A stretch of 64,000 nucleotides of DNA, from assembly GCA_014905635.1 (NCBI GenBank), contig JABVCE010000027.1, positions 62,001 to 126,000 on the forward strand, written 5' to 3'. Shown here piece after piece: positions 1,558 through 61,326 of the stretch. Position numbers and translations under genes: made by a program. The stretch comes from Scenedesmus sp. PABB004 (taxonomy: Eukaryota). The notes under the pieces are model-generated. The model was not told the origin of the DNA. It saw only the letters and a program-made list of their open reading frames with translations, and made no database searches. How positions within the stretch are numbered: the first letter of the stretch is position 1; the number at the start of each line of letters is the position of its first letter.

Positions 1558-6680
<5,123 letters not shown>

Positions 6681-8638: not shown

Positions 8639-11600
8639 ATGGGCAGACGCCGGTCCGCAGCAGCAGCCTGCTGGCTGCTGCTGGCGGCGGCGGCCGCCCT
8701 CGCAGCGGGCGCTGGCGCAGCGGCGCCCGCGCCCTCGCCGAGCCCCAGCCCGCTCGTGGTGCAGCCCGGTGACTGCGTCGACTGCAAGCACTTGCAGGTC
8801 GGGGGCGCCTGCTCGCGATGGTCCTGCCAGTGCAGGAGCGGGTCGTGGCAGGTCACCTGGAGCCTGGTGCGCGCGCGCGCCGCAGCCGGCGGGGAGCGCG
8901 CAGCGCAGCGCAGCGCAGCGCAGCGCCGTGCAGCGCAGCACACCCGTACCGGCAGCAGCCGCGCGGCCGGTGCGTGCTCTCACCCCTGCTGCTGCCCGCC
9001 CCGGCCCACAGCTGCCCGGCTGCAGCAAGGACAAGATCTCTTGGGCCTGCTGTGCCAAGGGCTCCGACAGCTCGCGGTGCGCCCTCACCACGTGCACGGG
9101 CTCGAGCGCCAGCACCTACTGCGATAATGTCAGCAGCATCACCTACACGCTGCCCGTGAGCGAGACCGCCGCCACGTTCTACATGCACGGTGAGCCAGCG
9201 TCGGCGGGCGGCCGCGCATCTGCAGCGGCGTGCGGCGGCAGCAGCTCGGCGGCTCGCGCTTGACCACGCCGGCCCGCTCTGCCCGCAGACGGCAAGTTTG
9301 CCAGCGGCCTGGACTGGCCAAAAGGCAATGATGTGATTTGCGGCGGCGGCGGCGGCGGTAGCTGCGCCTCCTCTGGCTCGGGCGTTTGCCAGGTCCCGGT
9401 CGCGCTGACGGGGCCCGGCGGCATCTGCAGCGGCTCCTGCGGCGCCACGCCAGCAGTGTCGTCGCCTAGCCCGAGCCCATTCTGGAGCCCGAGCCCAAGG
9501 TGAGGTGGCGCTGCGCTCGGTGTGCGGCGGTCGGGCGCCCGTGCCGCCGGCTGCCTTCCTTGGCTCACGTTTGTGTCGGACCGCGCGTCGCCGCAGCCCG
9601 AGCCCCTCGCCGAACCCGAGCCGCTCGCCGAGCCCGAGCCCCTCGCTGAGCCCGAGCCCGCTGTCGAGCCCGAGCCCCAGGTGAGGTGGTGGCCACGCTG
9701 GGTTGGTGTGCAGCGGTCGGGTGCCCGCGTGCCGCCGGCTGCCTTCCTTGGCTCACGTTTGTGTCGGACCACGCGCCGCCGCAGCCCGAGCCCCTCGCCG
9801 AGCCCGAGCCGCTCGCCGAGCCCGAGCCCGAGCCCGAGGTGAGGTGGTGGCCGTGCTGGGTTGGTGTGCTGCGGTCGGGCGCCTGCGTGCCGCCGGCTGC
9901 CCTCCTTGGCTCACGCTTGTGTCGGACCACGCGCCGCCGCAGCCCGAGCCCCTCGCCGAGCCCGAGCCGCTCGCCGAGCCCGAGCCCCTCGCCGAGCCCG
10001 AGCCCGCTGTCGAGCCCGAGCCCCAGGTGAGGTGGTGGCCACGCTGGGTTGGTGTGCAGCGGTCGGGTGCCCGCGTGCCGCCGGCTGCCTTCCTTGGCTC
10101 ACGTTTGTGTCGGACCACGCGCCGCCGCAGCCCGAGCCCCTCGCCGAGCCCGAGCCGCTCGCCGAGCCCGAGCCCGAGCCCGAGGTGAGGTGGTGGCCGT
10201 GCTGGGTTGGTGTGCTGCGGTCGGGCGCCTGCGTGCCGCCGGCTGCCCTCCTTGGCTCACGCTTGTGTCGGACCACGCGCCGCCGCAGCCCGAGCCCCTC
10301 GCCGAGCCCGAGCCGCTCGCCGAGCCCGAGCCCCTCGCCGAGCCCGAGCCCCTCGCCGAGCCCGAGCCCCTCGCCGAGCCCGAACCCGAGCCCGAGGTGA
10401 GGTGGTGGCCGTGCTGGGTTGGTGTGCTGCGGTCGGGCGCCTGCGTGCCGCCGGCTGCCCTCCTTGGCTCACGCTTGTGTCGGACCACGCGCCGCCGCAG
10501 CCCGAGCCCCTCGCCGAGCCCGAGCCGCTCGCCGAGCCCGAGCCCGCTCCCGAGCCCGAGCCCCTCGCCGAGCCCGAGCCCGCTGTCGAGCCCGAGCCCC
10601 TCGCCGAGCCCGAGCCCGCTCTCAAGCCCGAGCCCCTCGCCGAGCCCGAGCCCAAGGTGAGGTGGCGGCTGCGCTGGGTTGGTGTGCAGCAGTCTGCCGC
10701 TCGCATGCGGTCACCGCAGGCCTTGCTTGGCTCACCGTGTGTGCGGTCCTGCACTGCCCTGCCGCAGCACGAGTCCCTCGCCGAGCCCGAGCCGCTCGCC
10801 GAGCCCGAGCCCGCTCCCGAGCCCGAGCCGCTCGCCGAGCCCGAGCCCGCTCCCGAGCCCAAGCCCCTCGCCGAGCCCGAGCCCGCTGTCGAGCCGGAGC
10901 CCCTCGCCGAGCCCGAGCCCGCTGTCGAGCCCGAGCCCCTCGCCGAGCCCGAGCCCAAGGTGAGGTGGCGGCCGCACTGGGCCGGGGCGCAGCAGTCTGC
11001 CGCTCGCATGCGGTCACCGCAGGCCTTGCTTGGCTCACCGTGTGTGGGGTCCTGCACTGCCCTGCCGCAGCCCGAGTCCCTCGCCGAGGCCGAGCCCCTC
11101 GCCGAGCCCGGGCCCGCTCACAAGCCCGAGCCCATTCTGGAGCCCGAGCCCAAGGTGAGGTGGCGGCTGCGCTGGGTTGGTGTGCCGCGGTCGGGTGCCC
11201 GCGCGCCGCCGGCTGCATTCCTTGGCTCACGTTTGTGTTGGACCGCGCGCAGCCGCAGCCCGAGCCCGTCGCCGAGGCCGAGTCCGTCGCCCTCGGCAAA
11301 CCTCAATGACGACGACGATGACGAGGATGGTCGGTCGCCGAGCCCCTCGCCGCGGTCCAGCCCGAGCCCCAGCCCGCGCCCGAGTTTGAGCCCGAGGTGA
11401 GCAGGAGCAGCAGTCTAGTGCTGCTGGGGGTTTGGGTCGCAGGGCTGCCAGCGACAACGCTGGGTGTTCCGCCAGCTCAGCACGCAGTGCGTAGCGTTGT
11501 GTTTGTGCCGCTGTCTGTTTTTGGCTCACGGAGTCGGCCCACGCTGCCCCGCCGCAGCCCGAGCCCGTCGCCGAGCCCGAGCCGCTCGCCGAGCCCGAGC

Positions 11601-14600
11601 CCGCTCCCGAGCCTGAGCCCCTCGCCGAGCCCGAGCCCGCTCTCAAGCCCGAGCCCCTCGCCGAGCCCGAGCCCAAGGTGAGGTGGCGGCTGCGCTGGGT
11701 TGGTGTGCAGCGGTCGGGTGCCCGCGCGCCGCCGGCTGCATTCCTTGGCTCACGTTTGTGTTGGACCGCGCGCAGCCGCAGCCCGAGCCCGTCGCCGAGG
11801 CCGAGTCCGTCGCCCTCGGCAAACGTCAATGACGACGACGATGACGAGGATGGTCGGTCGCCGAGCCCCTCGCCGCGGTCCAGCCCGAGCCCCAGCCCGC
11901 GCCCGAGTTTGAGCCCGAGGTGAGCAGGAGCAGCAGTCTAGTGCTGCTGGGGGTTTGGGTCGCAGGGCTGCCAGCGACAACGCTGGGTGTTCCGCCAGCT
12001 CAGCACGCAGTGCGTAGCGTTGTGTTTGTGCCGCTGTCTGTTTTTGGCTCACGGAGTCGGCCCACGCTGCCCCGCCGCAGCCCGAGCCCGTCGCCGAGCC
12101 CGAGCCGCTCGCCGAGCCCGAGCCCGCTCCCGAGCCCGAGCCCCTCGCCGAGCCCGAGCCCGCTCTCAAGCCCGAGCCCCTCGCCGAGCCCGAGCCCAAG
12201 GTGAGGTGGCGGCTGCGCTGGGTTGGTGTGCAGCGGTCGGGTGCCCGCGCGCCGCCGGCTGCATTCCTTGGCTCACGTTTGTGTTGGACCGCGCGCAGCC
12301 GCAGCCCGAGCCCGTCGCCGAGGCCGAGTCCGTCGCCCTCGGCAAACGTCAATGACGACGACGATGACGAGGATGGTCGGTCGCCGAGCCCCTCGCCGCG
12401 GTCCAGCCCGAGCCCCAGCCCGCGCCCGAGTTTGAGCCCGAGGTGAGCAGGAGCAGCAGTCTAGTGCTGCTGGGGGTTTGGGTCGCAGGGCTGCCAGCGA
12501 CAACGCTGGGTGTTCCGCCAGCTCAGCACGCAGTGCGTAGCATTGTGTTTGTGCCGCTGTCTGTTTTTGGCTCACGGAGTCGGCCCGCGCTGCCCCGCCG
12601 CAGCCCGAGCCCGTCGCCGAGCCCGAGCCGCTCGCCGAGCCCGAGCCCGCTCCCGAGCCTGAGCCCCTCGCCGAGCCCGAGCCCCTCGCCGAGCCCGAGC
12701 CCAAGGTGAGGTGGCGGCTGCGCTGGGTCGGTGTGCAGCAGTCTGCCGCTCGCATGCGGTCACCGCATGCCTTGCTTGGCTCACCGTGTGTGCGGTCCTG
12801 CACTGCCCTGCCGCAGCCCGAGTCCCTCGCCGAGCCCGAGCCGCTCGCCTATCCCGAGCCCGTCGCCGAGCCCGAGCCCCTCGCCGAGCCCGGGCCCGCT
12901 CACAAGCCCGAGCCCCTCGCCGAGCCCGAGCCCAAGGTGAGGTGGCGGCTGCGCTGGGTTGGTGTGCAGCGGTCGGGTGCCCGCGCGCCGCCGGCTGCAT
13001 TCCTTGGCTCACGTTTGTGTTGGACCGCGCGCAGCCGCAGCCCGAGCCCGTCGCCGAGGCCGAGTCCGTCGCCCTCGGCAAACGTCAATGACGACGACGA
13101 TGACGAGGATGGTCGGTCGCCGAGCCCCTCGCCGCGGTCCAGCCCGAGCCCCAGCCCGCGCCCGAGTTTGAGCCCGAGGTGAGCAGGAGCAGCAGTCTAG
13201 TGCTGCTGGGGGTTTGGGTCGCAGGGCTGCCAGCGACAACGCTGGGTGTTCCGCCAGCTCAGCACGCAGTGCGTAGCGTTGTGTTTGTGCCGCTGTCTGT
13301 TTTTGGCTCACGGAGTCGGCCCACGCTGCCCCGCCGCAGCCCGAGCCCGTCGCCGAGCCCGAGCCGCTCGCCGAGCCCGAGCCCGCTCCCGAGCCTGAGC
13401 CCCTCGCCGAGCCCGAGCCCGCTCTCAAGCCCGAGCCCCTCGCCGAGCCCGAGCCCAAGGTGAGGTGGCGGCTGCGCTGGGTTGGTGTGCAGCGGTCGGG
13501 TGCCCGCGCGCCGCCGGCTGCATTCCTTGGCTCACGTTTGTGTTGGACCGCGCGCAGCCGCAGCCCGAGCCCGTCGCCGAGGCCGAGTCCGTCGCCCTCG
13601 GCAAACGTCAATGACGACGACGATGACGAGGATGGTCGGTCGCCGAGCCCCTCGCCGCGGTCCAGCCCGAGCCCCAGCCCGCGCCCGAGTTTGAGCCCGA
13701 GGTGAGCAGGAGCAGCAGTCTAGTGCTGCTGGGGGTTTGGGTCGCAGGGCTGCCAGCGACAACGCTGGGTGTTCCGCCAGCTCAGCACGCAGTGCGTAGC
13801 GTTGTGTTTGTGCCGCTGTCTGTTTTTGGCTCACGGAGTCGGCCCGCGCTGCCCCGCCGCAGCCCGAGCCCGTCGCCGAGCCCGAGCCGCTCGCCGAGCC
13901 CGAGCCCGAGCCCGCTCCCGAGCCCGAGCCGCTCGCCGAGCCCGAGCCCGCTCTCAAGCCCGAGCCCCTCGCCGAGCCCGAGCCCGCTCCCGAGCCCAAG
14001 CCCCTCGCCGAGCCCGAGCCCGCTGTCGAGCCGGAGCCCCTCGCCGAGCCCGAGCCCGCTGTCGAGCCCGAGCCCCTCGCCGAGCCCGAGCCCAAGGTGA
14101 GGTGGCGGCCGCACTGGGCCGGGGCGCAGCAGTCTGCCGCTCGCATGCGGTCACCGCAGGCCTTGCTTGGCTCACCGTATGTGGGGTCCTGCACTGCCCT
14201 GCCGCAGCCCGAGTCCCTCGCCGAGGCCGAGCCCCTCGCCGAGCCCGGGCCCGCTCACAAGCCCGAGCCCATTCTGGAGCCCGAGCCCAAGGTGAGGTGG
14301 CGGCTGCGCTGGGTTGGTGTGCCGCGGTCGGGTGCCCGCGCGCCGCCGGCTGCATTCCTTGGCTCACGTTTGTGTTGGACCGCGCGCAGCCGCAGCCCGA
14401 GCCCGTCGCCGAGGCCGAGTCCGTCGCCCTCGGCAAACCTCAATGACGACGACGATGACGAGGATGGTCGGTCGCCGAGCCCCTCGCCGCGGTCCAGCCC
14501 GAGCCCCAGCCCGCGCCCGAGTTTGAGCCCGAGGTGAGCAGGAGCAGCAGTCTAGTGCTGCTGGGGGTTTGGGTCGCAGGGCTGCCAGCGATAACGCTGG

Positions 14601-17600
14601 GTGTTCCGCCAGCTCAGCACGCAGTGCGTAGCGTTGTGTTTGTGCCGCTGTCTGTTTTTGGCTCACGGAGTCGGCCCACGCTGCCCCGCCGCAGCCCGAG
14701 CCCGTCGCCGAGCCCGAGCCGCTCGCCGAGCCCGAGCCCGCTCCCGAGCCTGAGCCCCTCGCCGAGCCCGAGCCCGCTCTCAAGCCCGAGCCCCTCGCCG
14801 AGCCCGAGCCCAAGGTGAGGTGGCGGCTGCGCTGGGTTGGTGTGCAGCGGTCGGGTGCCCGCGCGCCGCCGGCTGCATTCCTTGGCTCACGTTTGTGTTG
14901 GACCGCGCGCAGCCGCAGCCCGAGCCCGTCGCCGAGGCCGAGTCCGTCGCCCTCGGCAAACGTCAATGACGACGACGATGACGAGGATGGTCGGTCGCCG
15001 AGCCCCTCGCCGCGGTCCAGCCCGAGCCCCAGCCCGCGCCCGAGTTTGAGCCCGAGGTGAGCAGGAGCAGCAGTCTAGTGCTGCTGGGGGTTTGGGTCGC
15101 AGGGCTGCCAGCGACAACGCTGGGTGTTCCGCCAGCTCAGCACGCAGTGCGTAGCATTGTGTTTGTGCCGCTGTCTGTTTTTGGCTCACGGAGTCGGCCC
15201 GCGCTGCCCCGCCGCAGCCCGAGCCCGTCGCCGAGCCCGAGCCGCTCGCCGAGCCCGAGCCCGCTCCCGAGCCTGAGCCCCTCGCCGAGCCCGAGCCCCT
15301 CGCCGAGCCCGAGCCCAAGGTGAGGTGGCGGCTGCGCTGGGTCGGTGTGCAGCAGTCTGCCGCTCGCATGCGGTCACCGCATGCCTTGCTTGGCTCACCG
15401 TGTGTGCGGTCCTGCACTGCCCTGCCGCAGCCCGAGTCCCTCGCCGAGCCCGAGCCGCTCGCCTATCCCGAGCCCGTCGCCGAGCCCGAGCCCCTCGCCG
15501 AGCCCGGGCCCGCTCACAAGCCCGAGCCCCTCGCCGAGCCCGAGCCCAAGGTGAGGTGGCGGCTGCGCTGGGTTGGTGTGCCGCGGTCGGGTGCCCGCGC
15601 GCCGCCGGCTGCATTCCTTGGCTCACGTTTGTGTTGGACCGCGCGCAGCCGCAGCCCGAGCCCGTCGCCGAGGCCGAGTCCGTCGCCCTCGGCAAACGTC
15701 AATGACGACGACGATGACGAGGATGGTCGGTCGCCGAGCCCCTCGCCGCGGTCCAGCCCGAGCCCCAGCCCGCGCCCGAGTTTGAGCCCGAGGTGAGCAG
15801 GAGCAGCAGTCTAGTGCTGCTGGGGGTTTGGGTCGCAGGGCTGCCAGCGACAACGCTGGGTGTTCCGCCAGCTCAGCACGCAGTGCGTAGCGTTGTGTTT
15901 GTGCCGCTGTCTGTTTTTGGCTCACGGAGTCGGCCCACGCTGCCCCGCCGCAGCCCGAGTCCCTCGCCGAGCCCGAGCCGCTCGCCTATCCCGAGCCCGT
16001 CGCCGAGCCCGAGCCCCTCGCCGAGCCCGGGCCCGCTCACAAGCCCGAGCCCCTCGCCGAGCCCGAGCCCAAGGTGAGGTGGCGGCTGCGCTGGGTTGGT
16101 GTGCCGCGTTCGGGTGCCCGCGCGCCGCCGGCTGCATTCCTTGGCTCACGTTTGTGTTGGACCGCGCGCAGCCGCAGCCCGAGCCCGTCGCCGAGGCCGA
16201 GTCCGTCGCCCTCGGCAAACGTCAATGACGACGACGATGACGAGGATGGTCGGTCGCCGAGCCCCTCGCCGCGGTCCAGCCCGAGCCCCAGCCCGCGCCC
16301 GAGTTTGAGCCCGAGGTGAGCAGGAGCAGCAGTCTAGTGCTGCTGGGGGTTTGGGTCGCAGGGCTGCCAGCGACAACGCTGGGTGTTCCGCCAGCTCAGC
16401 ACGCAGTGCGTAGCATTGTGTTTGTGCCGCTGTCTGTTTTTGGCTCACGGAGTCGGCCCGCGCTGCCCCGCCGCAGCCCGAGCCCGTCGCCGAGCCCGAG
16501 CCGCTCGCCGAGCCCGAGCCCGAGCCCGCTCCCGAGCCCGAGCCGCTCGCCGAGCCCGAGCCCCTCGCCGAGCCCGAGCCCCTCGCCGAGCCCGAGCCCG
16601 CTCCCGAGCCCAAGCCCCTCGCCGAGCCCGAGCCCGCTGTCGAGCCGGAGCCCCTCGCCGAGCCCGAGCCCGCTGTCGAGCCCGAGCCCCTCGCCGAGCC
16701 CGAGCCCGCTGTCGAGCCCGAGCCCCTCGCCGAGCCCGAGCCCAAGGTGAGGTGGCGGCCGCACTGGGCCGGGGCGCAGCAGTCTGCCGCTCGCATGCGG
16801 TCACCGCAGGCCTTGCTTGGCTCACCGTGTGTGGGGTCCTGCACTGCCCTGCCGCAGCCCGAGTCCCTCGCCGAGGCCGAGCCCCTCGCCGAGCCCGGGC
16901 CCGCTCACAAGCCCGAGCCCATTCTGGAGCCCGAGCCCAAGGTGAGGTGGCGGCTGCGCTGGGTTGGTGTGCCGCGGTCGGGTGCCCGCGCGCCGCCGGC
17001 TGCATTCCTTGGCTCACGTTTGTGTTGGACCGCGCGCAGCCGCAGCCCGAGCCCGTCGCCGAGGCCGAGTCCGTCGCCCTCGGCAAACGTCAATGACGAC
17101 GACGATGACGAGGATGGTCGGTCGCCGAGCCCCTCGCCGCGGTCCAGCCCGAGCCCCAGCCCGCGCCCGAGTTTGAGCCCGAGGTGAGCAGGAGCAGCAG
17201 TCTAGTGCTGCTGGGGGTTTGGGTCGCAGGGCTGCCAGCGACAACGCTGGGTGTTCCGCCAGCTCAGCACGCAGTGCGTAGCATTGTGTTTGTGCCGCTG
17301 TCTGTTTTTGGCTCACGGAGTCGGCCCGCGCTGCCCCGCCGCAGCCCGAGCCCGTCGCCGAGCCCGAGCCGCTCGCCGAGCCCGAGCCCGAGCCCGCTCC
17401 CGAGCCCGAGCCGCTCGCCGAGCCCGAGCCCCTCGCCGAGCCCGAGCCCCTCGCCGAGCCCGAGCCCGCTCCCGAGCCCAAGCCCCTCGCCGAGCCCGAG
17501 CCCGCTGTCGAGCCGGAGCCCCTCGCCGAGCCCGAGCCCGCTGTCGAGCCCGAGCCCCTCGCCGAGCCCGAGCCCGCTGTCGAGCCCGAGCCCCTCGCCG

Positions 17601-20600
17601 AGCCCGAGCCCAAGGTGAGGTGGCGGCCGCACTGGGCCGGGGCGCAGCAGTCTGCCGCTCGCATGCGGTCACCGCAGGCCTTGCTTGGCTCACCGTGTGT
17701 GGGGTCCTGCACTGCCCTGCCGCAGCCCGAGTCCCTCGCCGAGGCCGAGCCCCTCGCCGAGCCCGGGCCCGCTCACAAGCCCGAGCCCATTCTGGAGCCC
17801 GAGCCCAAGGTGAGGTGGCGGCTGCGCTGGGTTGGTGTGCCGCGGTCGGGTGCCCGCGCGCCGCCGGCTGCATTCCTTGGCTCACGTTTGTGTTGGACCG
17901 CGCGCAGCCGCAGCCCGAGCCCGTCGCCGAGGCCGAGTCCGTCGCCCTCGGCAAACGTCAATGACGACGACGATGACGAGGATGGTCGGTCGCCGAGCCC
18001 CTCGCCGCGGTCCAGCCCGAGCCCCAGCCCGCGCCCGAGTTTGAGCCCGAGGTGAGCAGGAGCAGCAGTCTAGTGCTGCTGGGGGTTTGGGTCGCAGGGC
18101 TGCCAGCGACAACGCTGGGTGTTCCGCCAGCTCAGCACGCAGTGCGTAGCATTGTGTTTGTGCCGCTGTCTGTTTTTGGCTCACGGAGTCGGCCCGCGCT
18201 GCCCCGCCGCAGCCCGAGCCCGTCGCCGAGCCCGAGCCGCTCGCCGAGCCCGAGCCCGAGCCCGCTCCCGAGCCCGAGCCGCTCGCCGAGCCCGAGCCCC
18301 TCGCCGAGCCCGAGCCCCTCGCCGAGCCCGAGCCCGCTCCCGAGCCCAAGCCCCTCGCCGAGCCCGAGCCCGCTGTCGAGCCGGAGCCCCTCGCCGAGCC
18401 CGAGCCCGCTGTCGAGCCCGAGCCCCTCGCCGAGCCCGAGCCCGCTGTCGAGCCCGAGCCCCTCGCCGAGCCCGAGCCCAAGGTGAGGTGGCGGCCGCAC
18501 TGGGCCGGGGCGCAGCAGTCTGCCGCTCGCATGCGGTCACCGCAGGCCTTGCTTGGCTCACCGTGTGTGGGGTCCTGCACTGCCCTGCCGCAGCCCGAGT
18601 CCCTCGCCGAGGCCGAGCCCCTCGCCGAGCCCGGGCCCGCTCACAAGCCCGAGCCCATTCTGGAGCCCGAGCCCAAGGTGAGGTGGCGGCTGCGCTGGGT
18701 TGGTGTGCCGCGGTCGGGTGCCCGCGCGCCGCCGGCTGCATTCCTTGGCTCACGTTTGTGTTGGACCGCGCGCAGCCGCAGCCCGAGCCCGTCGCCGAGG
18801 CCGAGTCCGTCGCCCTCGGCAAACGTCAATGACGACGACGATGACGAGGATGGTCGGTCGCCGAGCCCCTCGCCGCGGTCCAGCCCGAGCCCCAGCCCGC
18901 GCCCGAGTTTGAGCCCGAGGTGAGCAGGAGCAGCAGTCTAGTGCTGCTGGGGGTTTGGGTCGCAGGGCTGCCAGCGATAACGCTGGGTGTTCCGCCAGCT
19001 CAGCACGCAGTGCGTAGCGTTGTGTTTGTGCCGCTGTCTGTTTTTGGCTCACGGAGTCGGCCCACGCTGCCCCGCCGCAGCCCGAGCCCGTCGCCGAGCC
19101 CGAGCCGCTCGCCGAGCCCGAGCCCGCTCCCGAGCCTGAGCCCCTCGCCGAGCCCGAGCCCGCTCTCAAGCCCGAGCCCCTCGCCGAGCCCGAGCCCAAG
19201 GTGAGGTGGCGGCTGCGCTGGGTTGGTGTGCAGCGGTCGGGTGCCCGCGCGCCGCCGGCTGCATTCCTTGGCTCACGTTTGTGTTGGACCGCGCGCAGCC
19301 GCAGCCCGAGCCCGTCGCCGAGGCCGAGTCCGTCGCCCTCGGCAAACGTCAATGACGACGACGATGACGAGGATGGTCGGTCGCCGAGCCCCTCGCCGCG
19401 GTCCAGCCCGAGCCCCAGCCCGCGCCCGAGTTTGAGCCCGAGGTGAGCAGGAGCAGCAGTCTAGTGCTGCTGGGGGTTTGGGTCGCAGGGCTGCCAGCGA
19501 CAACGCTGGGTGTTCCGCCAGCTCAGCACGCAGTGCGTAGCATTGTGTTTGTGCCGCTGTCTGTTTTTGGCTCACGGAGTCGGCCCGCGCTGCCCCGCCG
19601 CAGCCCGAGCCCGTCGCCGAGCCCGAGCCGCTCGCCGAGCCCGAGCCCGCTCCCGAGCCTGAGCCCCTCGCCGAGCCCGAGCCCGCTCTCAAGCCCGAGC
19701 CCCTCGCCGAGCCCGAGCCCAAGGTGAGGTGGCGGCTGCGCTGGGTTGGTGTGCAGCGGTCGGGTGCCCGCGCGCCGCCGGCTGCATTCCTTGGCTCACG
19801 TTTGTGTTGGACCGCGCGCAGCCGCAGCCCGAGCCCGTCGCCGAGGCCGAGTCCGTCGCCCTCGGCAAACGTCAATGACGACGACGATGACGAGGATGGT
19901 CGGTCGCCGAGCCCCTCGCCGCGGTCCAGCCCGAGCCCCAGCCCGCGCCCGAGTTTGAGCCCGAGGTGAGCAGGAGCAGCAGTCTAGTGCTGCTGGGGGT
20001 TTGGGTCGCAGGGCTGCCAGCGACAACGCTGGGTGTTCCGCCAGCTCAGCACGCAGTGCGTAGCGTTGTGTTTGTGCCGCTGTCTGTTTTTGGCTCACGG
20101 AGTCGGCCCACGCTGCCCCGCCGCAGCCCGAGCCCGTCGCCGAGCCCGAGCCGCTCGCCGAGCCCGAGCCCGCTCCCGAGCCTGAGCCCCTCGCCGAGCC
20201 CGAGCCCGCTCTCAAGCCCGAGCCCCTCGCCGAGCCCGAGCCCAAGGTGAGGTGGCGGCTGCGCTGGGTTGGTGTGCAGCGGTCGGGTGCCCGCGCGCCG
20301 CCGGCTGCATTCCTTGGCTCACGTTTGTGTTGGACCGCGCGCAGCCGCAGCCCGAGCCCGTCGCCGAGGCCGAGTCCGTCGCCCTCGGCAAACGTCAATG
20401 ACGACGACGATGACGAGGATGGTCGGTCGCCGAGCCCCTCGCCGCGGTCCAGCCCGAGCCCCAGCCCGCGCCCGAGTTTGAGCCCGAGGTGAGCAGGAGC
20501 AGCAGTCTAGTGCTGCTGGGGGTTTGGGTCGCAGGGCTGCCAGCGATAACGCTGGGTGTTCCGCCAGCTCAGCACGCAGTGCGTAGCGTTGTGTTTGTGC

Positions 20601-44600: not shown

Positions 44601-47600
44601 CCCCTCGCCGAGCCCGGCGCCTGCCAACGCCAGCAGCAGCGTTGAGCAGCCCGAGCCCGTCGCCGAGCCCGTCGCCCGAGCCGAGCCCGAGGTGAGAGCT
44701 TGCTGCGCGCTGGTTGGGGGCGCAGCAGCGCGCGGCTGGCCGCCGCCGCCGCGAGGGAGGGCCACGCGTGCCGCCGGTTGCGTTCCCTCGGCCGGGCTCA
44801 CCGTGTCGGCCCGCGCTGCACCGCCGCAGCCCGAGCCCCTCGCCGAGCCCGGCGCCGCTCAACCCTTACAACGTTGAGAGCCCGAGCCCGTCGCCGAGCC
44901 CGTCGCCCGAGCCGAGCCCGAGGTGAGAGCTTGCTGCGCGCTGGTTGGGGGCGCAGCAGCGCGCGGCTGGCCGCCGCCGCCGCGAGGGAGGGCCACGCGT
45001 GCCGCCGGTTGCGTTCCCTCGGCCGGGCTCACCGTGTCGGCCCGCGCTGCACCGCCGCAGCCCGAGCCCCTCGCCCAGTCGCCCGAGCCCCTCGCCGAGC
45101 CCGGCGCCGCTCAACCCTTACAACGTTGAGAGCCCGAGCCCGTCGCCGAGCCCGTCGCCCGAGCCGAGCCCGAGGTGAGAGCTTGCTGCGCGCTGGTTGG
45201 GGGCGCAGCAGCGCGCGGCTGGCCGCCGCCGCCGCGAGGGAGGGCCACGCGTGCCGCCGGTTGCGTTCCCTCGGCCGGGCTCACCGTGTCGGCCCGCGCT
45301 GCACCGCCGCAGCCCGAGCCCCTCGCCCAGTCCGAGCCCGTCGCCGAGCCCCTCGCCGAGCCCGGCGCCTGCCAACCCAGCAGCAGCGTTGAGAGCCCGA
45401 GCCCGTCGCCGAGCCCGTCGCCCGAGCCGAGCCCGAGGTGAGAGCTTGCTGCGCGCTGGTTGGGGGCGCAGCAGCGCGCGGCTGGCCGCCGCCGCCGCGA
45501 GGGAGGGCCACGCGTGCCGCCGGTTGCGTTCCCTCGGCCGGGCTCACCGTGTCGGCCCGCGCTGCACCGCCGCAGCCCGAGCCCCTCGCCGAGCCCGGCG
45601 CCGCTCAACCCTTACAACGTTGAGAGCCCGAGCCCGTCGCCGAGCCCGTCGCCCGAGCCGAGCCCGAGGTGAGAGCTTGCTGCGCGCTGGTTGGGGGCGC
45701 AGCAGCGCGCGGCTGGCCGCCGCCGCCGCGAGGGAGGGCCACGCGTGCCGCCGGTTGCGTTCCCTCGGCCGGGCTCACCGTGTCGGCCCGCGCTGCACCG
45801 CCGCAGCCCGAGCCCCTCGCCCAGTCCGAGCCCGTCGCCGAGCCCCTCGCCGAGCCCGGCGCCTGCCAACGCCAGCAGCAGCGTTGAGCAGCCCGAGCCC
45901 GTCGCCGAGCCCGTCGCCCGAGCCGAGCCCGAGGTGAGAGCTTGCTGCGCGCTGGTTGGGGGCGCAGCAGCGCGCGGCTGGCCGCCGCCGCCGCGAGGGA
46001 GGGCCACGCGTGCCGCCGGTTGCGTTCCCTCGGCCGGGCTCACCGTGTCGGCCCGCGCTGCACCGCCGCAGCCCGAGCCCCTCGCCGAGCCCGGCGCCGC
46101 TCAACCCTTACAACGTTGAGAGCCCGAGCCCGTCGCCGAGCCCGTCGCCCGAGCCGAGCCCGAGGTGAGAGCTTGCTGCGCGCTGGTTGGGGGCGCAGCA
46201 GCGCGCGGCTGGCCGCCGCCGCCGCGAGGGAGGGCCACGCGTGCCGCCGGTTGCGTTCCCTCGGCCGGGCTCACCGTGTCGGCCCGCGCTGCACCGCCGC
46301 AGCCCGAGCCCCTCGCCGAGCCCGGCGCCGCTCAACCCTTACAACGTTGAGAGCCCGAGCCCGTCGCCGAGCCCGTCGCCCGAGCCGAGCCCGAGGTGAG
46401 AGCTTGCTGCGCGCTGGTTGGGGGCGCAGCAGCGCGCGGCTGGCCGCCGCCGCCGCGAGGGAGGGCCACGCGTGCCGCCGGTTGCGTTCCCTCGGCCGGG
46501 CTCACCGTGTCGGCCCGCGCTGCACCGCCGCAGCCCGAGCCCCTCGCCCAGTCCGAGCCCGTCGCCGAGCCCCTCGCCGCTCAACCCTTACAACGTTGAG
46601 AGCCCGAGCCCGTCGCCGAGCCCGTCGCCCGAGCCGAGCCCGAGGTGAGAGCTTGCTGCGCGCTGGTTGGGGGCGCAGCAGCGCGCGGCTGGCCGCCGCC
46701 GCCGCGAGGGAGGGCCACGCGTGCCGCCGGTTGCGTTCCCTCGGCCGGGCTCACCGTATCGGCCCGCGCTGCACCGCCGCAGCCCGAGCCCCTCGCCCAG
46801 TCCGAGCCCGTCGCCGAGCCCCTCGCCGAGCCCGGCGCCGCTCAACCCTTACAACGTTGAGAGCCCGAGCCCGTCGCCGAGCCCGTCGCCCGAGCCGAGC
46901 CCGAGGTGAGAGCTTGCTGCGCGCTGGTTGGGGGCGCAGCAGCGCGCGGCTGGCCGCCGCCGCCGCGAGGGAGGGCCACGCGTGCCGCCGGTTGCGTTCC
47001 CTCGGCCGGGCTCACCGTATCGGCCCGCGCTGCACCGCCGCAGCCCGAGCCCCTCGCCCAGTCCGAGCCCGTCGCCGAGCCCCTCGCCGAGCCCGGCGCC
47101 GCTCAACCCTTACAACGTTGAGAGCCCGAGCCCGTCGCCGAGCCCGTCGCCCGAGCCGAGCCCGAGGTGAGAGCTTGCTGCGCGCTGGTTGGGGGCGCAG
47201 CAGCGCGCGGCTGGCCGCCGCCGCCGCGAGGGAGGGCCACGCGTGCCGCCGGTTGCGTTCCCTCGGCCGGGCTCACCGTATCGGCCCGCGCTGCACCGCC
47301 GCAGCCCGAGCCCCTCGCCCAGTCCGAGCCCGTCGCCGAGCCCCTCGCCGAGCCCGGCGCCGCTCAACCCTTACAACGTTGAGAGCCCGAGCCCGTCGCC
47401 GAGCCCGTCGCCCGAGCCGAGCCCGAGGTGAGAGCTTGCTGCGCGCTGGTTGGGGGCGCAGCAGCGCGCGGCTGGCCGCCGCCGCCGCGAGGGAGGGCCA
47501 CGCGTGCCGCCGGTTGCGTTCCCTCGGCCGGGCTCACCGTGTCGGCCCGCGCTGCACCGCCGCAGCCCGAGCCCCTCGCCGAGCCCGGCGCCGCTCAACC

Positions 47601-50600
47601 CTTACAACGTTGAGAGCCCGAGCCCGTCGCCGAGCCCGTCGCCCGAGCCGAGCCCGAGGTGAGAGCTTGCTGCGCGCTGGTTGGGGGCGCAGCAGCGCGC
47701 GGCTGGCCGGCGCCGCCGCGAGGGAGGGCCACGCGTGCCGCCGGTTGCGTTCCCTCGGCCGGGCTCACCGTGTCGGCCCGCGCTGCACCGCCGCAGCCCG
47801 AGCCCCTCGCCGAGCCCGGCGCCGCTCAACCCTTACAACGTTGAGAGCCCGAGCCCGTCGCCGAGCCCGTCGCCCGAGCCGAGCCCGAGGTGAGAGCTTG
47901 CTGCGCGCTGGTTGGGGGCGCAGCAGCGCGCGGCTGGCCGCCGCCGCCGCGAGGGAGGGCCACGCGTGCCGCCGGTTGCGTTCCCTCGGCCGGGCTCACC
48001 GTGTCGGCCCGCGCTGCACCGCCGCAGCCCGAGCCCCTCGCCGAGCCCGGCGCCGCTCAACCCTTACAACGTTGAGAGCCCGAGCCCGTCGCCGAGCCCG
48101 TCGCCCGAGCCGAGCCCGAGGTGAGAGCTTGCTGCGCGCTGGTTGGGGGCGCAGCAGCGCGCGGCTGGCCGCCGCCGCCGCGAGGGAGGGCCACGCGTGC
48201 CGCCGGTTGCGTTCCCTCGGCCGGGCTCACCGTATCGGCCCGCGCTGCACCGCCGCAGCCCGAGCCCCTCGCCCAGTCCGAGCCCGTCGCCGAGCCCCTC
48301 GCCGAGCCCGGCGCCGCTCAACCCTTACAACGTTGAGAGCCCGAGCCCGTCGCCGAGCCCGTCGCCCGAGCCGAGCCCGAGGTGAGAGCTTGCTGCGCGC
48401 TGGTTGGGGGCGCAGCAGCGCGCGGCTGGCCGCCGCCGCCGCGAGGGAGGGCCACGCGTGCCGCCGGTTGCGTTCCCTCGGCCGGGCTCACCGTGTCGGC
48501 CCGCGCTGCACCGCCGCAGCCCGAGCCCCTCGCCGAGCCCGGCGCCGCTCAACCCTTACAACGTTGAGAGCCCGAGCCCGTCGCCGAGCCCGTCGCCCGA
48601 GCCGAGCCCGAGGTGAGAGCTTGCTGCGCGCTGGTTGGGGGCGCAGCAGCGCGCGGCTGGCCGCCGCCGCCGCGAGGGAGGGCCACGCGTGCCGCCGGTT
48701 GCGTTCCCTCGGCCGGGCTCACCGTGTCGGCCCGCGCTGCACCGCCGCAGCCCGAGCCCCTCGCCGAGCCCGGCGCCGCTCAACCCTTACAACGTTGAGA
48801 GCCCGAGCCCGTCGCCGAGCCCGTCGCCCGAGCCGAGCCCGAGGTGAGAGCTTGCTGCGCGCTGGTTGGGGGCGCAGCAGCGCGCGGCTGGCCGCCGCCG
48901 CCGCGAGGGAGGGCCACGCGTGCCGCCGGTTGCGTTCCCTCGGCCGGGCTCACCGTGTCGGCCCGCGCTGCACCGCCGCAGCCCGAGCCCCTCGCCGAGC
49001 CCGGCGCCGCTCAACCCTTACAACGTTGAGAGCCCGAGCCCGTCGCCGAGCCCGTCGCCCGAGCCGAGCCCGAGGTGAGAGCTTGCTGCGCGCTGGTTGG
49101 GGGCGCAGCAGCGCGCGGCTGGCCGCCGCCGCCGCGAGGGAGGGCCACGCGTGCCGCCGGTTGCGTTCCCTCGGCCGGGCTCACCGTGTCGGCCCGCGCT
49201 GCACCGCCGCAGCCCGAGCCCCTCGCCGAGCCCGGCGCCGCTCAACCCTTACAACGTTGAGAGCCCGAGCCCGTCGCCGAGCCCGTCGCCCGAGCCGAGC
49301 CCGAGGTGAGAGCTTGCTGCGCGCTGGTTGGGGGCGCAGCAGCGCGCGGCTGGCCGCCGCCGCCGCGAGGGAGGGCCACGCGTGCCGCCGGTTGCGTTCC
49401 CTCGGCCGGGCTCACCGTGTCGGCCCGCGCTGCACCGCCGCAGCCCGAGCCCCTCGCCGAGCCCGGCGCCGCTCAACCCTTACAACGTTGAGAGCCCGAG
49501 CCCGTCGCCGAGCCCGTCGCCCGAGCCGAGCCCGAGGTGAGAGCTTGCTGCGCGCTGGTTGGGGGCGCAGCAGCGCGCGGCTGGCCGCCGCCGCCGCGAG
49601 GGAGGGCCACGCGTGCCGCCGGTTGCGTTCCCTCGGCCGGGCTCACCGTGTCGGCCCGCGCTGCACCGCCGCAGCCCGAGCCCCTCGCCGAGCCCGGCGC
49701 CGCTCAACCCTTACAACGTTGAGAGCCCGAGCCCGTCGCCGAGCCCGTCGCCCGAGCCGAGCCCGAGGTGAGAGCTTGCTGCGCGCTGGTTGGGGGCGCA
49801 GCAGCGCGCGGCTGGCCGCCGCCGCCGCGAGGGAGGGCCACGCGTGCCGCCGGTTGCGTTCCCTCGGCCGGGCTCACCGTGTCGGCCCGCGCTGCACCGC
49901 CGCAGCCCGAGCCCCTCGCCGAGCCCGGCGCCGCTCAACCCTTACAACGTTGAGAGCCCGAGCCCGTCGCCGAGCCCGTCGCCCGAGCCGAGCCCGAGGT
50001 GAGAGCTTGCTGCGCGCTGGTTGGGGGCGCAGCAGCGCGCGGCTGGCCGCCGCCGCCGCGAGGGAGGGCCACGCGTGCCGCCGGTTGCGTTCCCTCGGCC
50101 GGGCTCACCGTATCGGCCCGCGCTGCACCGCCGCAGCCCGAGCCCCTCGCCCAGTCCGAGCCCGTCGCCGAGCCCCTCGCCGAGCCCCGCGCCTGCCAAC
50201 GCCAGCAGCAGCGTTGCCAGCAGCCCGAGCCCGTCGCCGAGCCCGTCGCCCGAGCCGAGCCCGAGGTGAGAGCTTGCTGCGCGCTGGTTGGGGGCGCAGC
50301 AGCGCGCGGCTGGCCGCCGCCGCCGCGAGGGAGGGCCACGCGTGCCGCCGGTTGCGTTCCCTCGGCCGGGCTCACCGTGTCGGCCCGCGCTGCACCGCCG
50401 CAGCCCGAGCCCCTCGCCGAGCCCGGCGCCGCTCAACCCTTACAACGTTGAGAGCCCGAGCCCGTCGCCGAGCCCGTCGCCCGAGCCGAGCCCGAGGTGA
50501 GAGCTTGCTGCGCGCTGGTTGGGGGCGCAGCAGCGCGCGGCTGGCCGCCGCCGCCGCGAGGGAGGGCCACGCGTGCCGCCGGTTGCGTTCCCTCGGCCGG

Positions 50601-53600
50601 GCTCACCGTGTCGGCCCGCGCTGCACCGCCGCAGCCCGAGCCCCTCGCCGAGCCCGGCGCCGCTCAACCCTTACAACGTTGAGAGCCCGAGCCCGTCGCC
50701 GAGCCCGTCGCCCGAGCCGAGCCCGAGGTGAGAGCTTGCTGCGCGCTGGTTGGGGGCGCAGCAGCGCGCGGCTGGCCGCCGCCGCCGCGAGGGAGGGCCA
50801 CGCGTGCCGCCGGTTGCGTTCCCTCGGCCGGGCTCACCGTGTCGGCCCGCGCTGCACCGCCGCAGCCCGAGCCCCTCGCCGAGCCCGGCGCCGCTCAACC
50901 CTTACAACGTTGAGAGCCCGAGCCCGTCGCCGAGCCCGTCGCCCGAGCCGAGCCCGAGGTGAGAGCTTGCTGCGCGCTGGTTGGGGGCGCAGCAGCGCGC
51001 GGCTGGCCGCCGCCGCCGCGAGGGAGGGCCACGCGTGCCGCCGGTTGCGTTCCCTCGGCCGGGCTCACCGTGTCGGCCCGCGCTGCACCGCCGCAGCCCG
51101 AGCCCCTCGCCGAGCCCGGCGCCGCTCAACCCTTACAACGTTGAGAGCCCGAGCCCGTCGCCGAGCCCGTCGCCCGAGCCGAGCCCGAGGTGAGAGCTTG
51201 CTGCGCGCTGGTTGGGGGCGCAGCAGCGCGCGGCTGGCCGCCGCCGCCGCGAGGGAGGGCCACGCGTGCCGCCGGTTGCGTTCCCTCGGCCGGGCTCACC
51301 GTGTCGGCCCGCGCTGCACCGCCGCAGCCCGAGCCCCTCGCCCAGTCCGAGCCCGTCGCCGAGCCCCTCGCCGAGCCCGGCGCCTGCCAACGCCAGCAGC
51401 AGCGTTGCCAGCAGCCCGAGCCCGTCGCCGAGCCCGTCGCCCGAGCCGAGCCCGAGGTGAGAGCTTGCTGCGCGCTGGTTGGGGGCGCAGCAGCGCGCGG
51501 CTGGCCGCCGCCGCCGCGAGGGAGGGCCACGCGTGCCGCCGGTTGCGTTCCCTCGGCCGGGCTCACCGTGTCGGCCCGCGCTGCACCGCCGCAGCCCGAG
51601 CCCCTCGCCGAGCCCGGCGCCGCTCAACCCTTACAACGTTGAGAGCCCGAGCCCGTCGCCGAGCCCGTCGCCCGAGCCGAGCCCGAGGTGAGAGCTTGCT
51701 GCGCGCTGGTTGGGGGCGCAGCAGCGCGCGGCTGGCCGCCGCCGCCGCGAGGGAGGGCCACGCGTGCCGCCGGTTGCGTTCCCTCGGCCGGGCTCACCGT
51801 GTCGGCCCGCGCTGCACCGCCGCAGCCCGAGCCCCTCGCCGAGCCCGGCGCCGCTCAACCCTTACAACGTTGAGAGCCCGAGCCCGTCGCCGAGCCCGTC
51901 GCCCGAGCCGAGCCCGAGGTGAGAGCTTGCTGCGCGCTGGTTGGGGGCGCAGCAGCGCGCGGCTGGCCGCCGCCGCCGCGAGGGAGGGCCACGCGTGCCG
52001 CCGGTTGCGTTCCCTCAGCCGGGCTCACCGTGTCTGCCCGCGCTGCACCGCCGCAGCCCGAGCCCCTCGCCGAGTCCGAGCCCCTCGCCGAGCCCGGCGC
52101 CTGCCAACGCCATCAATGGCGTTGCCGTTGGCCTCTCACCAAGCCCGAGCCCCGTGCCAAGCCCGGCGCCGAGCGACAACACAGGGACGCCTGCACCGCC
52201 GCCACCTGCAGCGCCGCCAGCATTGCCGTCCCCCTCCCCCGTGCAGGAGCTGGCGCCCGGCCCTGCGCCGAGCGCACCGCCGCCGTCGCCCTCCCCTGCG
52301 CCTGCACCTGGGCTGGCGCCCTCGCCGTCGCCCTCCCCTGCGCAGGAGCTGCTCGGCACCTGCGGCGACACAAAGCCGGGCCAGGCGGACGCCCCGGTGC
52401 GCTTTGCTGCCTGCCCGCAGTACACCGAGTATGCGGAGGCGCTGGCGGGCGTGAGCCCGCCGAGCGCGCTCGCGTGCTGCGCGGCGACCTGCGGAAACGC
52501 TGCCGTCAGCACGCCCGCCAAGGCCTGGGAGTGCCCCACTGGCCGGCTCTTCCGGGACAATGTGACGGTGTTGACCCTCACAAACCCCTCGGACGAGCGC
52601 TGCTGCGAGCTGGGGGTCGCGTCGGAGAGCACAGTGGTGCTGGGCCTGCAAAAGACGGGGCCCACCGCGCCTGTGCGGCTGGGCGATGAGTTTGACTTCA
52701 CCATCACCATCACCGTTACCTCGCTCGGCCTCGACAGCGCCGCGCAGGGCGTGGTCGTCACGGACGAGCTGCCAGAGGGCTTTGCGTTTGCCGGCACGCC
52801 GCGTGCAGGTGCGCGGCTGGGCGCATGGCCGGGCCGCTTGGCCGCCAACTGCCGCGCGTGCGCTCGCACACGCTCACGCTCCGCCCGGCGCTGCCCCCGC
52901 GCCCCCGTGCTGCACAGACTGCAACTACCAGGGCCGCCGCGTGACGTGTGGGCTGGGCTCCGTTGTCGACAGCGCTGTGCTGGTGGTCCGCGTCAAGGCG
53001 GTCAAGGCCGGGCCCTGGGTCAATGTCGCAACGGTGACCGCCACCAACGACAAGAGCGGCCCCAAGAGCGGCTCTTCGCCGGTTGTGGCTGTGCTGGTGG
53101 GTGCCGCACTGCGGTCAGCCGCCTTGGGCGGGGTGCTGCGTGCGCACTCGGGCCAGCCCTTGCCCCGCCTAGCCCGGCGCTAATGCGTGCTCACCCCGTC
53201 GCCGTGCCGTCAACCGCAGGGCGCTTGCTGCGACGCGTCTGCACCCGCAGCGGCGAGCTTCTGCAGCTACACTACGCAGGAGGCCTGCACCGGCGGCGCG
53301 TTCAGCGTTGACAAGCCCTGCCAGCTCGCGGCCTGCCCCGCGCCGCGGCCGCCGGCCAAGGCCACCTGCGCAGACAGTCAGCCCGGTGCCGGTGCGCCCG
53401 TGCCGTTTGCGTGCCCGCCCGGCACCACGTTCAACGTCGCCGCAGCCGGCACGGCGCGCCCCAAAGCGCGCACGTGCTGCCTGGCGACCTGCGCCAACAC
53501 CAAGGTCAACTCCAAGACTCCGCGCCCCTTCAACTGCCGCGCGGCCGGCCCGACGCTCGTCAACGACCCCACCAAGGCCTCCGCCTCGCCGCCCAGCGCG

Positions 53601-55079
53601 GGGGCGTGCTGCAAGGTGGAGGTGGTGGTGGACCCCGACGACGTGCCGGACGTGGGTCTTGTCAAGCGCCTGGTCGGGCCCAACAGCATCAGCATCGGCG
53701 CCGCGTTCACGTACGAGCTCACCGTGACGGTGCTGAAGGGCCTGGCCGGCGCGGACGACGTTGTCGTCGTGGACAGCCTGCCGACCGGGCTGGTCTTTGA
53801 CACCACGTCGCTGGACCTCTCAGGTGCGCGGCGCCCCGCGTGGCTGGCTGGCCGCGCCCTCCCTCGTGCGGCCGCGCGCGCGTGCAGTGACCAACCCCGC
53901 TGCGCCGCGCCCCTGCCCCGCAGTGTGCCGGCCCTCTGGGCAGGAGCTCACGTGCAGCCTGGGCTCCATGGCCTACAAGGAGGCGCGCACCATCAGCTTC
54001 AGGGCGGTCGCGCAGATCGCTGGCCGCTTCATCAACGCGGCAAGCGTGAAGGCCGCCGTGGATGCTGACCCCACCAACAACGCGGCCAAGGCACCCGGTG
54101 CCATTGTGATGGTGCGCGCGCTGCGCTGCACAGACCCTTGCGTGCAGCCGCCCCCGGGTGCACGATGCGCACCCGCCCTTGCGCGCCGTACCCGCTCCCG
54201 CCGCTGCGTGGGCGCAAGCTGACCGCACGGCTGTTTGTGCGCCCGCCTTCGCAGGGCGCGTGCTGCATCAGCGGCCGCCCGAGCGTGCGCAGCCAGGCGA
54301 GCTGCACGCGCGCTGGTGGCATCTTTTTCAACACCAAGAACAGCACCACCGTGCCGTCGTGCATCGCACTGCTGCCGCTCGACCAGCGCCCTGGCGCATG
54401 CTGCAAGGCCGACGGCGGCTGCAGCATCGAGCTGCGCGCTGACTGCGCAGGCGCGGGCCGCAACTGGAAGGTGGGTGAGCGCTGCTTCAAGAGGACCTGC
54501 CCCAAGCCCATGGGCGCGTGCTGCTACAGCGCCATGGGGTGGTGCAAGCAGACCACCAAGGACGAGTGCCTGGGCACGTGGAGCCAGGGCAAGCGCTGCG
54601 GCGAGGACATCTGCCCCCCCGTGTGTGTGTCGTCCTTCCAGCCCTGCACGCCCGGCGGCACGCGCTGCTGCGCGGGCGGCGTGTGCAGCGAGGTGCCTCC
54701 CGCCTTCCCCGGCAGCCCCGTCACGCACGCCTGCCAGCCCGCCGCCAAGTGCGGGCTGGTGAACTCGCCCTGCGGCGCCTGCGACGGTGGCGTGGCCTGC
54801 TGCGCCGGCCTGGAGTGCCGCTACGACTTTGCCTCCAAGTCGGGCAGCTGCCAGCCGCCCCCCGCCTGCAAGTCCGCGGGCAGCGCGTGCGGCGGCGACG
54901 GCGAGTGCTGCCGCGCCAACCGCTGCGGGCAGGACAAGAAGGTCAAGGCGCTCTCGCCGGCCGACTGCAACAAGACCTGCGGCGCGGACTACGCGTGCGA
55001 GACGGAGCGCCAGCGCGACTGCGCTGCGCTGCAGCTCGCGCTGACGTGCTCCAAGGCCGAGTCCAAGCGCCAGGCGTGA
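8639..55079 (+). CDS. Gene B: giant tandem paralog of gene A, ~183 exons, predicted ~7,400 aa. 5' exons 8639-8866, 9012-9189, 9289-9499; ~175 short (SP)n exons in 9597-51918; 3' exons 52057-52808, 52918-53096, 53220-53823, 53924-54111, 54255-55079
   Basis: The N-terminal exons (signal peptide, [12 protein letters not shown]...[12 protein letters not shown]) and C-terminal exons (...[14 protein letters not shown]) match gene A with the same intron positions. All intervening repeat units read AG|GTGAG...GGCTCAC...CCGCAG|C. Five units in 42.7-45.9 kb are frameshifted in this assembly. Confidence 0.75.
9500..22975 (+). repeat. Complex exon-intron tandem array: 52 introns in 4 sequence families (97-104 nt x6, 111 nt x14, 104 nt x16, 161 nt x16), with higher-order periods of 346, 523, 868 and 285 bp
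   Basis: Donor positions recur, e.g. 9681/10027 (346), 18920/19443/19966/20489/21012 (523), 16316/17184/18052/18920 (868) and 21881/22166/22451 (285). All exons I checked (54-270 nt) are multiples of 3. Confidence 0.9.
22976..52056 (+). repeat. 231-bp tandem array of 124 units (138-nt intron + 93-nt exon encoding [31 protein letters not shown]), with length variants of 243-267 bp
   Basis: The first intron is 22976-23113 and the first exon 23114-23206. The ORF track shows exact 231-bp periodicity from 24386 to 42635, with variants after 42635. Confidence 0.95.
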
Positions 55080-55379: not shown

Positions 55380-55442
55380 TACACACACACACACATACAC
55401 GCACACACATACACTCACTCACTCGCTCACTCACTCACTCAC
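55380..55442. repeat. (CA)n/(CACT)n microsatellite
   Basis: tacacacacacacacatacacgcacacatacactcactcactcgctcactcactcactcac. Confidence 0.85.

Positions 55443-61295: not shown

Positions 61296-61326
<31 letters not shown>

Follow-up and report, generated by a model that had tools for sequence, protein, structure and literature searches.

Uniform intron phase in a Scenedesmus gene with a long array of exon-intron cassettes is probably inherited through tandem duplication

Introduction

In the spider MaSp2 and flagelliform silk genes, iterated and homogenised introns delimit the repeat units, and unequal crossing-over has been proposed as the force that homogenises them (PMC9779670). The authors of that work on Argiope MaSp2 state that they knew an alternation of two intron types from no other eukaryotic gene (PMC9779670). 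Here we describe a gene of the alga Scenedesmus sp. PABB004, called gene B, in which an intron interrupts every cassette of a Ser-Pro repeat region. Gene B lies in a window of 64,000 nucleotides (nt), the whole stretch of DNA analysed here (assembly GCA_014905635.1, contig JABVCE010000027.1, positions 62,001 to 126,000 of the forward strand), and all coordinates below count from the first letter of that window.

Three further groups of proteins and genes bear on the comparison. Green algae make rods of the GP1 type, Ser-Pro hydroxyproline-rich glycoproteins (HRGPs), which were reportedly described by Ferris and colleagues in 2001. MST3, the Pro-rich core of the Chlamydomonas mastigoneme, has 8,572 amino acids (aa), and its Pro-rich repeats set the length of the filament (PMC11015965). 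The tandem repeats form a glycosylated polyproline-II helix in which 429 residues correspond to 133 nm, and their number has been proposed as a "molecular ruler" (PMC11015965).

The third group consists of genes with runs of symmetric exons. Exon skipping or differential splicing is documented for titin PEVK and for micro-exon genes (MEGs), and the micro-exons of schistosome MEGs are used in splicing-generated variation. Modular genes with symmetric exons include titin PEVK (PMC6469411), and the same theme, with tandem exon duplication, is described for collagen and for exons of disordered regions (PMC3632108, PMC4838654).

Results

We parsed the + strand with GTGAG as donor and GCAG followed by [CA][CA][CA]GAG as acceptor. 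In the resulting gene model, combined with Pfam, gene B opens with a sequence resembling a signal peptide and with a Cys-rich head, continues into a Ser-Pro array and closes with a tail that has two DUF11 domains and a Cys-rich end. Its parts are as follows.

8639..55079, + strand: gene B, 183 exons and 182 introns over 46,441 base pairs (bp)
8639-8866, 9012-9189 and 9289-9499, + strand: three head exons, intron phases 0 and 1
9500..22882, + strand: older, heterogeneous part of the array, 51 exons of 54-270 nt and introns of 97, 104, 111 and 161 nt
22883..52056, + strand: main array, 124 units, mostly of 231 bp (93-nt exon plus 138-nt intron)
52057-52808, 52918-53096, 53220-53823, 53924-54111 and 54255-55079, + strand: five tail exons, intron phases 1, 0, 1 and 0

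We found that the uniform phase claimed by an earlier sequence-only reading extends over the whole array: all 176 array introns between 9500 and 52056 are phase 2 and interrupt a Ser codon as AG|C. AG, which the search pattern did not impose, stands directly before the donor of every one of these introns, and the first exon base after each is C, where the pattern permitted C or A. The junctions read NCCNAG|GTGAG at the donor and CCGCAG|C at the acceptor. The codon that follows the split Ser begins with CC (Pro) at 175 of the 176 introns and is ACG at the other. A CTCAC motif is found 29 nt upstream of the intron 3' end in 162 introns and 33 nt upstream in 14.

The third head exon ends in AG and is followed by the first array intron, and the Ser-Pro frame is continuous from the head through the array into the tail. 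Retaining any array intron would read AGG TGA, an immediate stop, thus the array is not a single unspliced open reading frame (ORF). Any array donor joined to any array acceptor gives an in-frame Pro-Ser-Pro. Read in the alternative frame (PEPLAE...), the exons of 93 and 138 nt contain a TGA.

Gene B begins with ATG, basic residues and a hydrophobic Ala/Leu-rich stretch that, judged by eye, resembles a signal peptide, and its stop codon is TGA at 55077-55079. Ser-Pro repeat tracts together with this start give it, at the sequence level, the character of a Ser-Pro HRGP gene; Ser and Pro make up 69% of the 7,192 aa encoded by the model when five array exons whose length is not a multiple of three are set aside. 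Both DUF11 (PF01345) domains of the tail are split by an intron. Two exon pieces match PF01345 at 27.4 and 26.3 bits (E = 4.6e-6 and 9.7e-6) against a gathering cut-off of 24.6, and a third piece scores 21.9 bits. Scanned one by one, the three head exons matched nothing in Pfam, pherophorin included, in a scan of low sensitivity for a domain split between exons.

The 51 exons of the older part, between 9597 and 22771, measure 54 nt (two exons), 84 (seven), 102 (three), 108 (one), 120 (eleven), 138 (sixteen), 156 (one), 174 (three), 192 (one), 210 (two), 234 (one) and 270 nt (three). These are exactly the lengths reported before. All 51 are in frame and multiples of 6, and they have diverged into 18 distinct sequences. 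Their lengths form an 18-nt ladder (84, 102, 120, 138, 156, 174, 192, 210) plus a few 6-nt steps, and Tandem Repeats Finder (TRF) detects a period of 18 inside array exons. Between 11259 and 21172 there are runs of a 523-bp core unit in which the type of exon and the type of homogenised intron alternate: a 138-nt Asp-rich exon and a 161-nt intron, then a 120-nt exon and a 104-nt intron.

For the main array TRF gives a period of 231, with 124.2 copies and 95% matches. The main exon is indeed 93 nt long, in 105 of the 124 units between 22883 and 51918; the remaining exons measure 123 nt (eight), 105 (two), 129 (two), 111 and 114 nt (one each), except for five whose length is not divisible by three. 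Intron length is 138 nt in every one of the 124 units. The unit encodes a 31-residue Ser-Pro repeat with the kink APLNPYNVE. Identical copies account for 111 of the 124 introns and for 104 of the 105 93-nt exons. Diversity among copies is somewhat lower in exons than in the adjoining introns, in one comparison 0.0017 against 0.0086 and in the main array pi = 0.0002 against 0.0016, values that are too low for a test.

The proposed rule that exons are multiples of 6 describes the 51 older exons and fails in the main array, where 93, 105, 111, 123 and 129 nt are odd numbers of codons and 114 and 123 nt differ by 9 nt. Such lengths had been said to preserve the Ser-Pro register, but they are not needed for it; the 93-nt exon, with its 31 codons, has the same Ser-Pro context at both ends. 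Gain or loss of a unit had also been described as always neutral for the frame. This applies to 170 of the 175 internal array exons, which are multiples of three with equal phase at both ends, and not to the other five (119, 122, 125, 127 and 127 nt).

A short, intact paralogue, gene A, lies upstream of gene B.

1558..6680, + strand: gene A, 10 exons, ORF of 1,351 aa from ATG to TGA
2437-2543, 2760-2863 and 3002-3162, + strand: three array introns of gene A (107, 104 and 161 nt), all AG|C and phase 2

The ORF of gene A is uninterrupted when the same kinds of splice boundaries as in gene B are applied. Its array exons are 216 and 138 nt long, and the six non-array introns have the same phases in both genes (0, 1 and 1, 0, 1, 0). 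The second and third array introns of gene A are near-identical to the 104-nt and 161-nt classes of gene B, and intron identity between the two genes is 92-99%. In gene B the 176 array introns fall into five length classes (97 nt, one intron; 104 nt, 21; 111 nt, 14; 138 nt, 124; 161 nt, 16) and 21 distinct sequences. All five classes can be aligned, and the alignment also takes in the three array introns of gene A; three of its reference ends were off by 1-2 bases. Because there are 21 distinct sequences and the classes are homologous to introns of gene A, the effective number of independent intron positions is about 1-3 and not 176.

Comparison of the two tails over 1,794 ungapped coding sites gives 38 differences, 22.5 of them non-synonymous and 15.5 synonymous. 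For these ungapped exons pN/pS is 0.48 (one-sided p = 0.015), which shows constraint somewhere since the duplication that separated A from B.

Gene A has a (CAA)x48 run at 3760-3904 in its long exon, in frame with the Ser-Pro tract and encoding about 48 Asn, and gene B has no counterpart of it. The spacer between the genes is 95% identical at 6681-6825 to the 3' flank of gene B (55080-55224), and it contains, at 7714-7938, a 225-bp piece that matches 57917-58141, part of a gene region that lies downstream of B, with 97.8% identity. Since the spacer keeps copies of both, the A/B duplication took in downstream sequence that was later mostly deleted.

The anatomy of gene B, the homology of its introns, the identity of its units, the contrast with its paralogue and the duplicated blocks described below can be read directly from the DNA. 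The uniform AG|C phase is very probably explained by tandem duplication of cassettes, or unequal crossing-over, in a gene for a secreted Ser-Pro glycoprotein. The window would then hold two tandem paralogues with secreted, Ser-Pro-rich, HRGP-like products that have a common head and a common DUF11/Cys-rich tail. Gene B would be the gene A layout in which exon-plus-intron cassettes were amplified, from 3 to 176 array introns, by repeated tandem duplication or unequal crossing-over, with the 124 near-identical units, mostly of 231 bp, as the product of the most recent burst. All array introns would be copies of one to three ancestral introns, and the AG|C phase would be inherited. A simple candidate reason for the position of the founder intron is that in an AGC-CCN repeat AG|C appears to be the sole protein-neutral spot with an AG exon-side donor context.

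The uniform phase had been taken as a signature of selection on the spliced product, a view that our data do not support, since the phase follows from common descent of the duplicated cassettes. For a cassette to persist in a translated gene its exon would have to be a multiple of three, and frame neutrality would in that case be a precondition of survival and not a design. The multiple-of-6 lengths had been interpreted in the same way as the phase. With an internal Ser-Pro period of 6/18 nt, slippage would yield them unaided, and the lengths do not separate this process from selection. Under cassette duplication, unit number could drift in the DNA while the frame is kept. The suggestion that unit number can change in the DNA agrees with what we found, namely 3 array introns in gene A and 176 in gene B, near-identical units and block duplications. 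Our data support tunability of the array at the DNA level as an evolutionary fact.

Five exons of the main array break the reading frame.

42773-42891, + strand: 119 nt; relative to the 123-nt type, a 1-nt T deletion and a 3-nt deletion; first frameshift as assembled
43552-43673, + strand: 122 nt; the same T deletion as the 119-nt exon; contains the first in-frame stop, at 43626
44565-44691, + strand: 127 nt; a 2-nt CC deletion relative to the 129-nt type
45313-45437, + strand: 125 nt; hybrid of two exon types with a 1-nt (G) deletion
45807-45933, + strand: 127 nt, second copy; CC deletion, inside a duplicated block

Alignment to in-frame siblings placed none of these indels in a long homopolymer. 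The 3-unit blocks at 42773-43551 and 43552-44333 differ solely by a 3-nt indel and one substitution, and the 5-unit blocks that begin at 44334 and 45576 are identical over their first 725 aligned columns. Since the exons with the T deletion and those with the CC deletion sit in these duplicated blocks, they appear to have been copied by multi-unit duplication. This makes random consensus error a less likely source of the frameshift variants and suggests that frame-breaking units were not purged. Recent small indels are countable nowhere but in the young array, where we found four events (-1, -3, -2 and -1); three of them break the frame, and two of the three then spread by duplication. A proportion of three in four is close to the two-thirds that would be expected without selection on the frame, and the notion of such selection in the young array gains nothing from it.

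An internal GCAG|CCCGAG, a copy of the normal acceptor, is present in the 127-nt and 129-nt exons (44565-44691, 45807-45933, 50137-50265 and 51328-51456). Splicing to this site would leave an in-frame exon of 42 nt, so that both 127-nt frame-breaking exons would be rescued. No branch-like CTCAC precedes it.

Several results weigh against cassette duplication in a gene that is still translated throughout. With all exons included, the five frame-breaking exons leave a coding sequence of 22,199 nt that shifts frame at 42773 and stops at 43626, and gene B as assembled, with two frameshift variants in duplicated blocks, may be truncated or decaying. The pN/pS of 0.48 averages both lineages, and a pair of copies, one constrained and one neutral, would produce the same value. 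Our search patterns for donor and acceptor presuppose their motif, and an intron with different signals would be visible just indirectly, as an odd exon. A protein search with the last exon returned weak relatives only, 3 of nearly the same length and 12 longer, with 30-42% identity over 28-80% of the query and without useful names; the collection searched held neither the window's own proteins nor the gene A product. Short contigs from four freshwater/sludge metagenome runs, mapped on 51600-55300, are DNA-like and keep the introns, and one contig piece spans 52804-53242, across exon-intron boundaries.

These contigs show that the sequence is present in freshwater metagenomes. Within 51600-55300 no joint matching an intron was found in the contigs of the four runs, and two joints that go back fall in the repeat and are not interpretable. 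Metagenome depth was greater over the array unit than over the tail; we made no use of this, as depth is not copy number. A protein-based search for relatives in metagenome contigs gave 195 pattern matches, none of which was confirmed. One contig has a loose end at 52089, where the start of an array exon runs into GAC (Asp-codon) repeats. It resembles the 138-nt Asp-rich exon without being the same, and the gene family may thus have more alleles or paralogues in nature.

The frameshifts raise the possibility that gene B has been disabled or is decaying since the A/B duplication. One cassette would have undergone runaway amplification, in the manner of a satellite, in a gene no longer translated to the C-terminus, and most units would look in frame because they are young. 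Three independent frameshifts (the T, CC and G deletions) lie within 3.2 kb of each other and two of them were copied by later block duplication, the stop at 43626 follows from them as assembled, and the units are so nearly free of substitutions that selection would have had no time to act. The tail ratio of 0.48 is compatible with one neutral lineage. However, decay would have to have spared all 176 splice-site pairs, the head, and the tail with its four introns, the 1,794 aligned coding bases of the tail contain neither a stop nor a frameshift, and the 51 older exons have all stayed in frame. The five indels could also have arisen as errors of the consensus; they lie where the array, which is hard to assemble, varies most. 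We regard decay of gene B as possible, though on balance doubtful, and retain tandem duplication within a glycoprotein gene as the preferred explanation.

A different proposal is that selection maintains the AG|C phase-2 layout for tuning the length of a shaft, by regulated or stochastic skipping that yields a ladder of isoforms and a molecular ruler. It draws on the in-frame Pro-Ser-Pro formed by every donor-acceptor pairing and on the intact frame of the older exons despite their divergence into 18 sequences, and omission of the five broken exons would restore an uninterrupted ORF of 7,192 codons from the head to the tail TGA. Precedents exist in the Pro-rich repeats of MST3, documented as a ruler (PMC11015965), and in the symmetric micro-exons described for schistosome MEG genes (PMC10526429). 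Descent already accounts for the uniform phase, however, and frame-breaking variants spread rather than being purged. The broken exons bear the splice signals of their neighbours and no mark for skipping. The array introns, at 97-161 nt, are in the range where pairing across the intron is expected, and in RNA folding their three classes were not unusually structured (z = +1.69, -0.96 and +1.15); nor was the 93-nt exon (z = -0.71). Because of the short introns, the normal signals of the broken exons and the ordinary intron structure, regulated exon skipping is unlikely, and we consider selection for it an improbable cause of the phase that cassette duplication would explain.

Repeated insertion of introner-like mobile introns at the AG|C of a pre-existing long Ser-Pro exon is hardly credible: near-identical intron families exist in some green algae (PMC4540971) and AG|C within AGC appears to be the sole AG exon-side donor context in the repeat, but exon and intron were amplified jointly as a 231-bp tandem unit with identical exons, higher-order multi-unit blocks were duplicated as blocks, the spacing is perfectly regular, and a scan of metagenome contigs for AGGTGAG-N(86-116)-CCGCAGCCCGAGCCC found 24 loci with one match each and no array, which we took as chance. 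The N(86-116) of this pattern did not span the 138-nt and 161-nt introns. Within the window, array introns were not found outside the cassettes of the two paralogues.

The surroundings of the two genes contain the following.

61301-61546, + strand: VRR-NUC nuclease domain of a flanking gene (E 3.6e-18)
62173-63998, - strand: carboxyl-transferase (acetyl-CoA-carboxylase-like) domain of a flanking gene, split by introns (E 7.6e-30)

The genes of the window are of the spliceosomal type, and since one flanking gene encodes a VRR-NUC nuclease and another, with introns, a carboxyl-transferase, the locus is nuclear and eukaryotic. G+C content is 71-80% throughout the window, and at this composition a stop-to-stop listing of ORFs at 55-64 kb was uninformative. 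Together with the type of protein and the occurrence of the sequence in freshwater metagenomes, the G+C content points to a green alga. Just downstream of gene B, at 55477-56249, lies a tandem repeat of 163 bp in 4.7 copies (98% matches), preceded by CA-rich and CTCA-rich simple repeats at about 55380-55440.

Discussion

Our data suggest that gene B grew by copying exon and intron together, which would be the ordinary growth route for repeat genes of this kind. For genome scanning the lesson is that a uniform intron phase in a tandem array is one observation and not 176. With 124 identical donor and acceptor pairs, gene B offers a natural test of how the spliceosome keeps its register, and if it is transcribed, few cassette genes described so far would rival it in exon number and homogeneity. 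One literature collection was searched, and we found in it no description of iterated exon-intron cassettes in algal Ser-Pro glycoprotein genes and no paper that combines pherophorin with DUF11.

From the DNA we predict that splicing uses these sites, that the protein is secreted, hydroxylated and rod-shaped, and that gene B may still be translated to its end. The 170 in-frame array exons would encode 6,138 residues if translated. If gene B is read through, its roughly 6,100 array residues would form a polyproline-II-type rod about 1.9 µm long, at 0.31 nm per residue. Scaled by 133 nm per 429 residues (PMC11015965), the main array is predicted to be 1.18 µm long and a 31-residue unit 9.6 nm. 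The product is a candidate micrometre-scale Pro-rich spacer comparable to MST3. The boldest form of this idea is that the array works as an evolvable length module. All 46 kb would be transcribed, splicing among 124 interchangeable units would tolerate or exploit skipping, including that of the broken units, a micrometre-long glycosylated polyproline-II rod anchored by the DUF11/Cys-rich tail would set an extracellular dimension, and strains would differ in steps of 31 residues (about 9.6 nm). We give this little credence.

How does gene B compare with the described systems? It recalls the green-algal GP1-type HRGPs, which are said to have a signal-like start, long (Ser-Pro)n tracts with periodic kinks and globular, Cys-containing ends. 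It differs from them in its size, in the intron within every repeat cassette and in the DUF11 domains of its tail.

With titin PEVK, collagen and the MEG genes it has in common runs of short exons of equal phase whose duplication, loss or skipping can leave the frame intact. As in symmetric-exon genes generally, tandem exon duplication has taken place in a region encoding low-complexity, extended protein. Unlike in the splicing systems of that group, the short introns of gene B argue for pairing across the intron.

MST3 resembles the gene B product in being a giant, Pro-rich, secreted algal protein, with 8,572 aa against about 7,200 aa in the gene B model (PMC11015965). The domains differ: MST3 carries a PKD-like membrane domain as well as lectin domains (PMC11015965), and the gene B product a Cys-rich head and a DUF11/Cys-rich tail. 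The likeness is one of build rather than of demonstrated sequence relationship.

The closest architecture is that of the flagelliform and Argiope MaSp2.1a/2.2a spidroin genes, in which a long gene for a repetitive structural protein has a short intron for each repeat (PMC9779670). The protein encoded by gene B is unrelated, a Ser-Pro rod as opposed to a Gly/Ala silk, it belongs to another kingdom, and the units are far more numerous (176 introns). For the silk genes splicing has been documented (PMC9779670), whereas in gene B it is predicted from sequence. The likeness lies in the iterated-intron layout itself, as gene B has an intron at the same position in each unit and its introns are highly homogenised. 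Intron homogeneity in MaSp2 averages 97.6% (PMC9779670), and in the main array of gene B 111 of 124 introns are identical. Some stretches of MaSp2, like some of gene B, have a core unit made of two alternating types of exon and two of intron (PMC9779670). If gene B is transcribed, it would extend the architecture of iterated, homogenised introns, including the alternation of two intron types, from spider silk to a wall-type glycoprotein of an alga.

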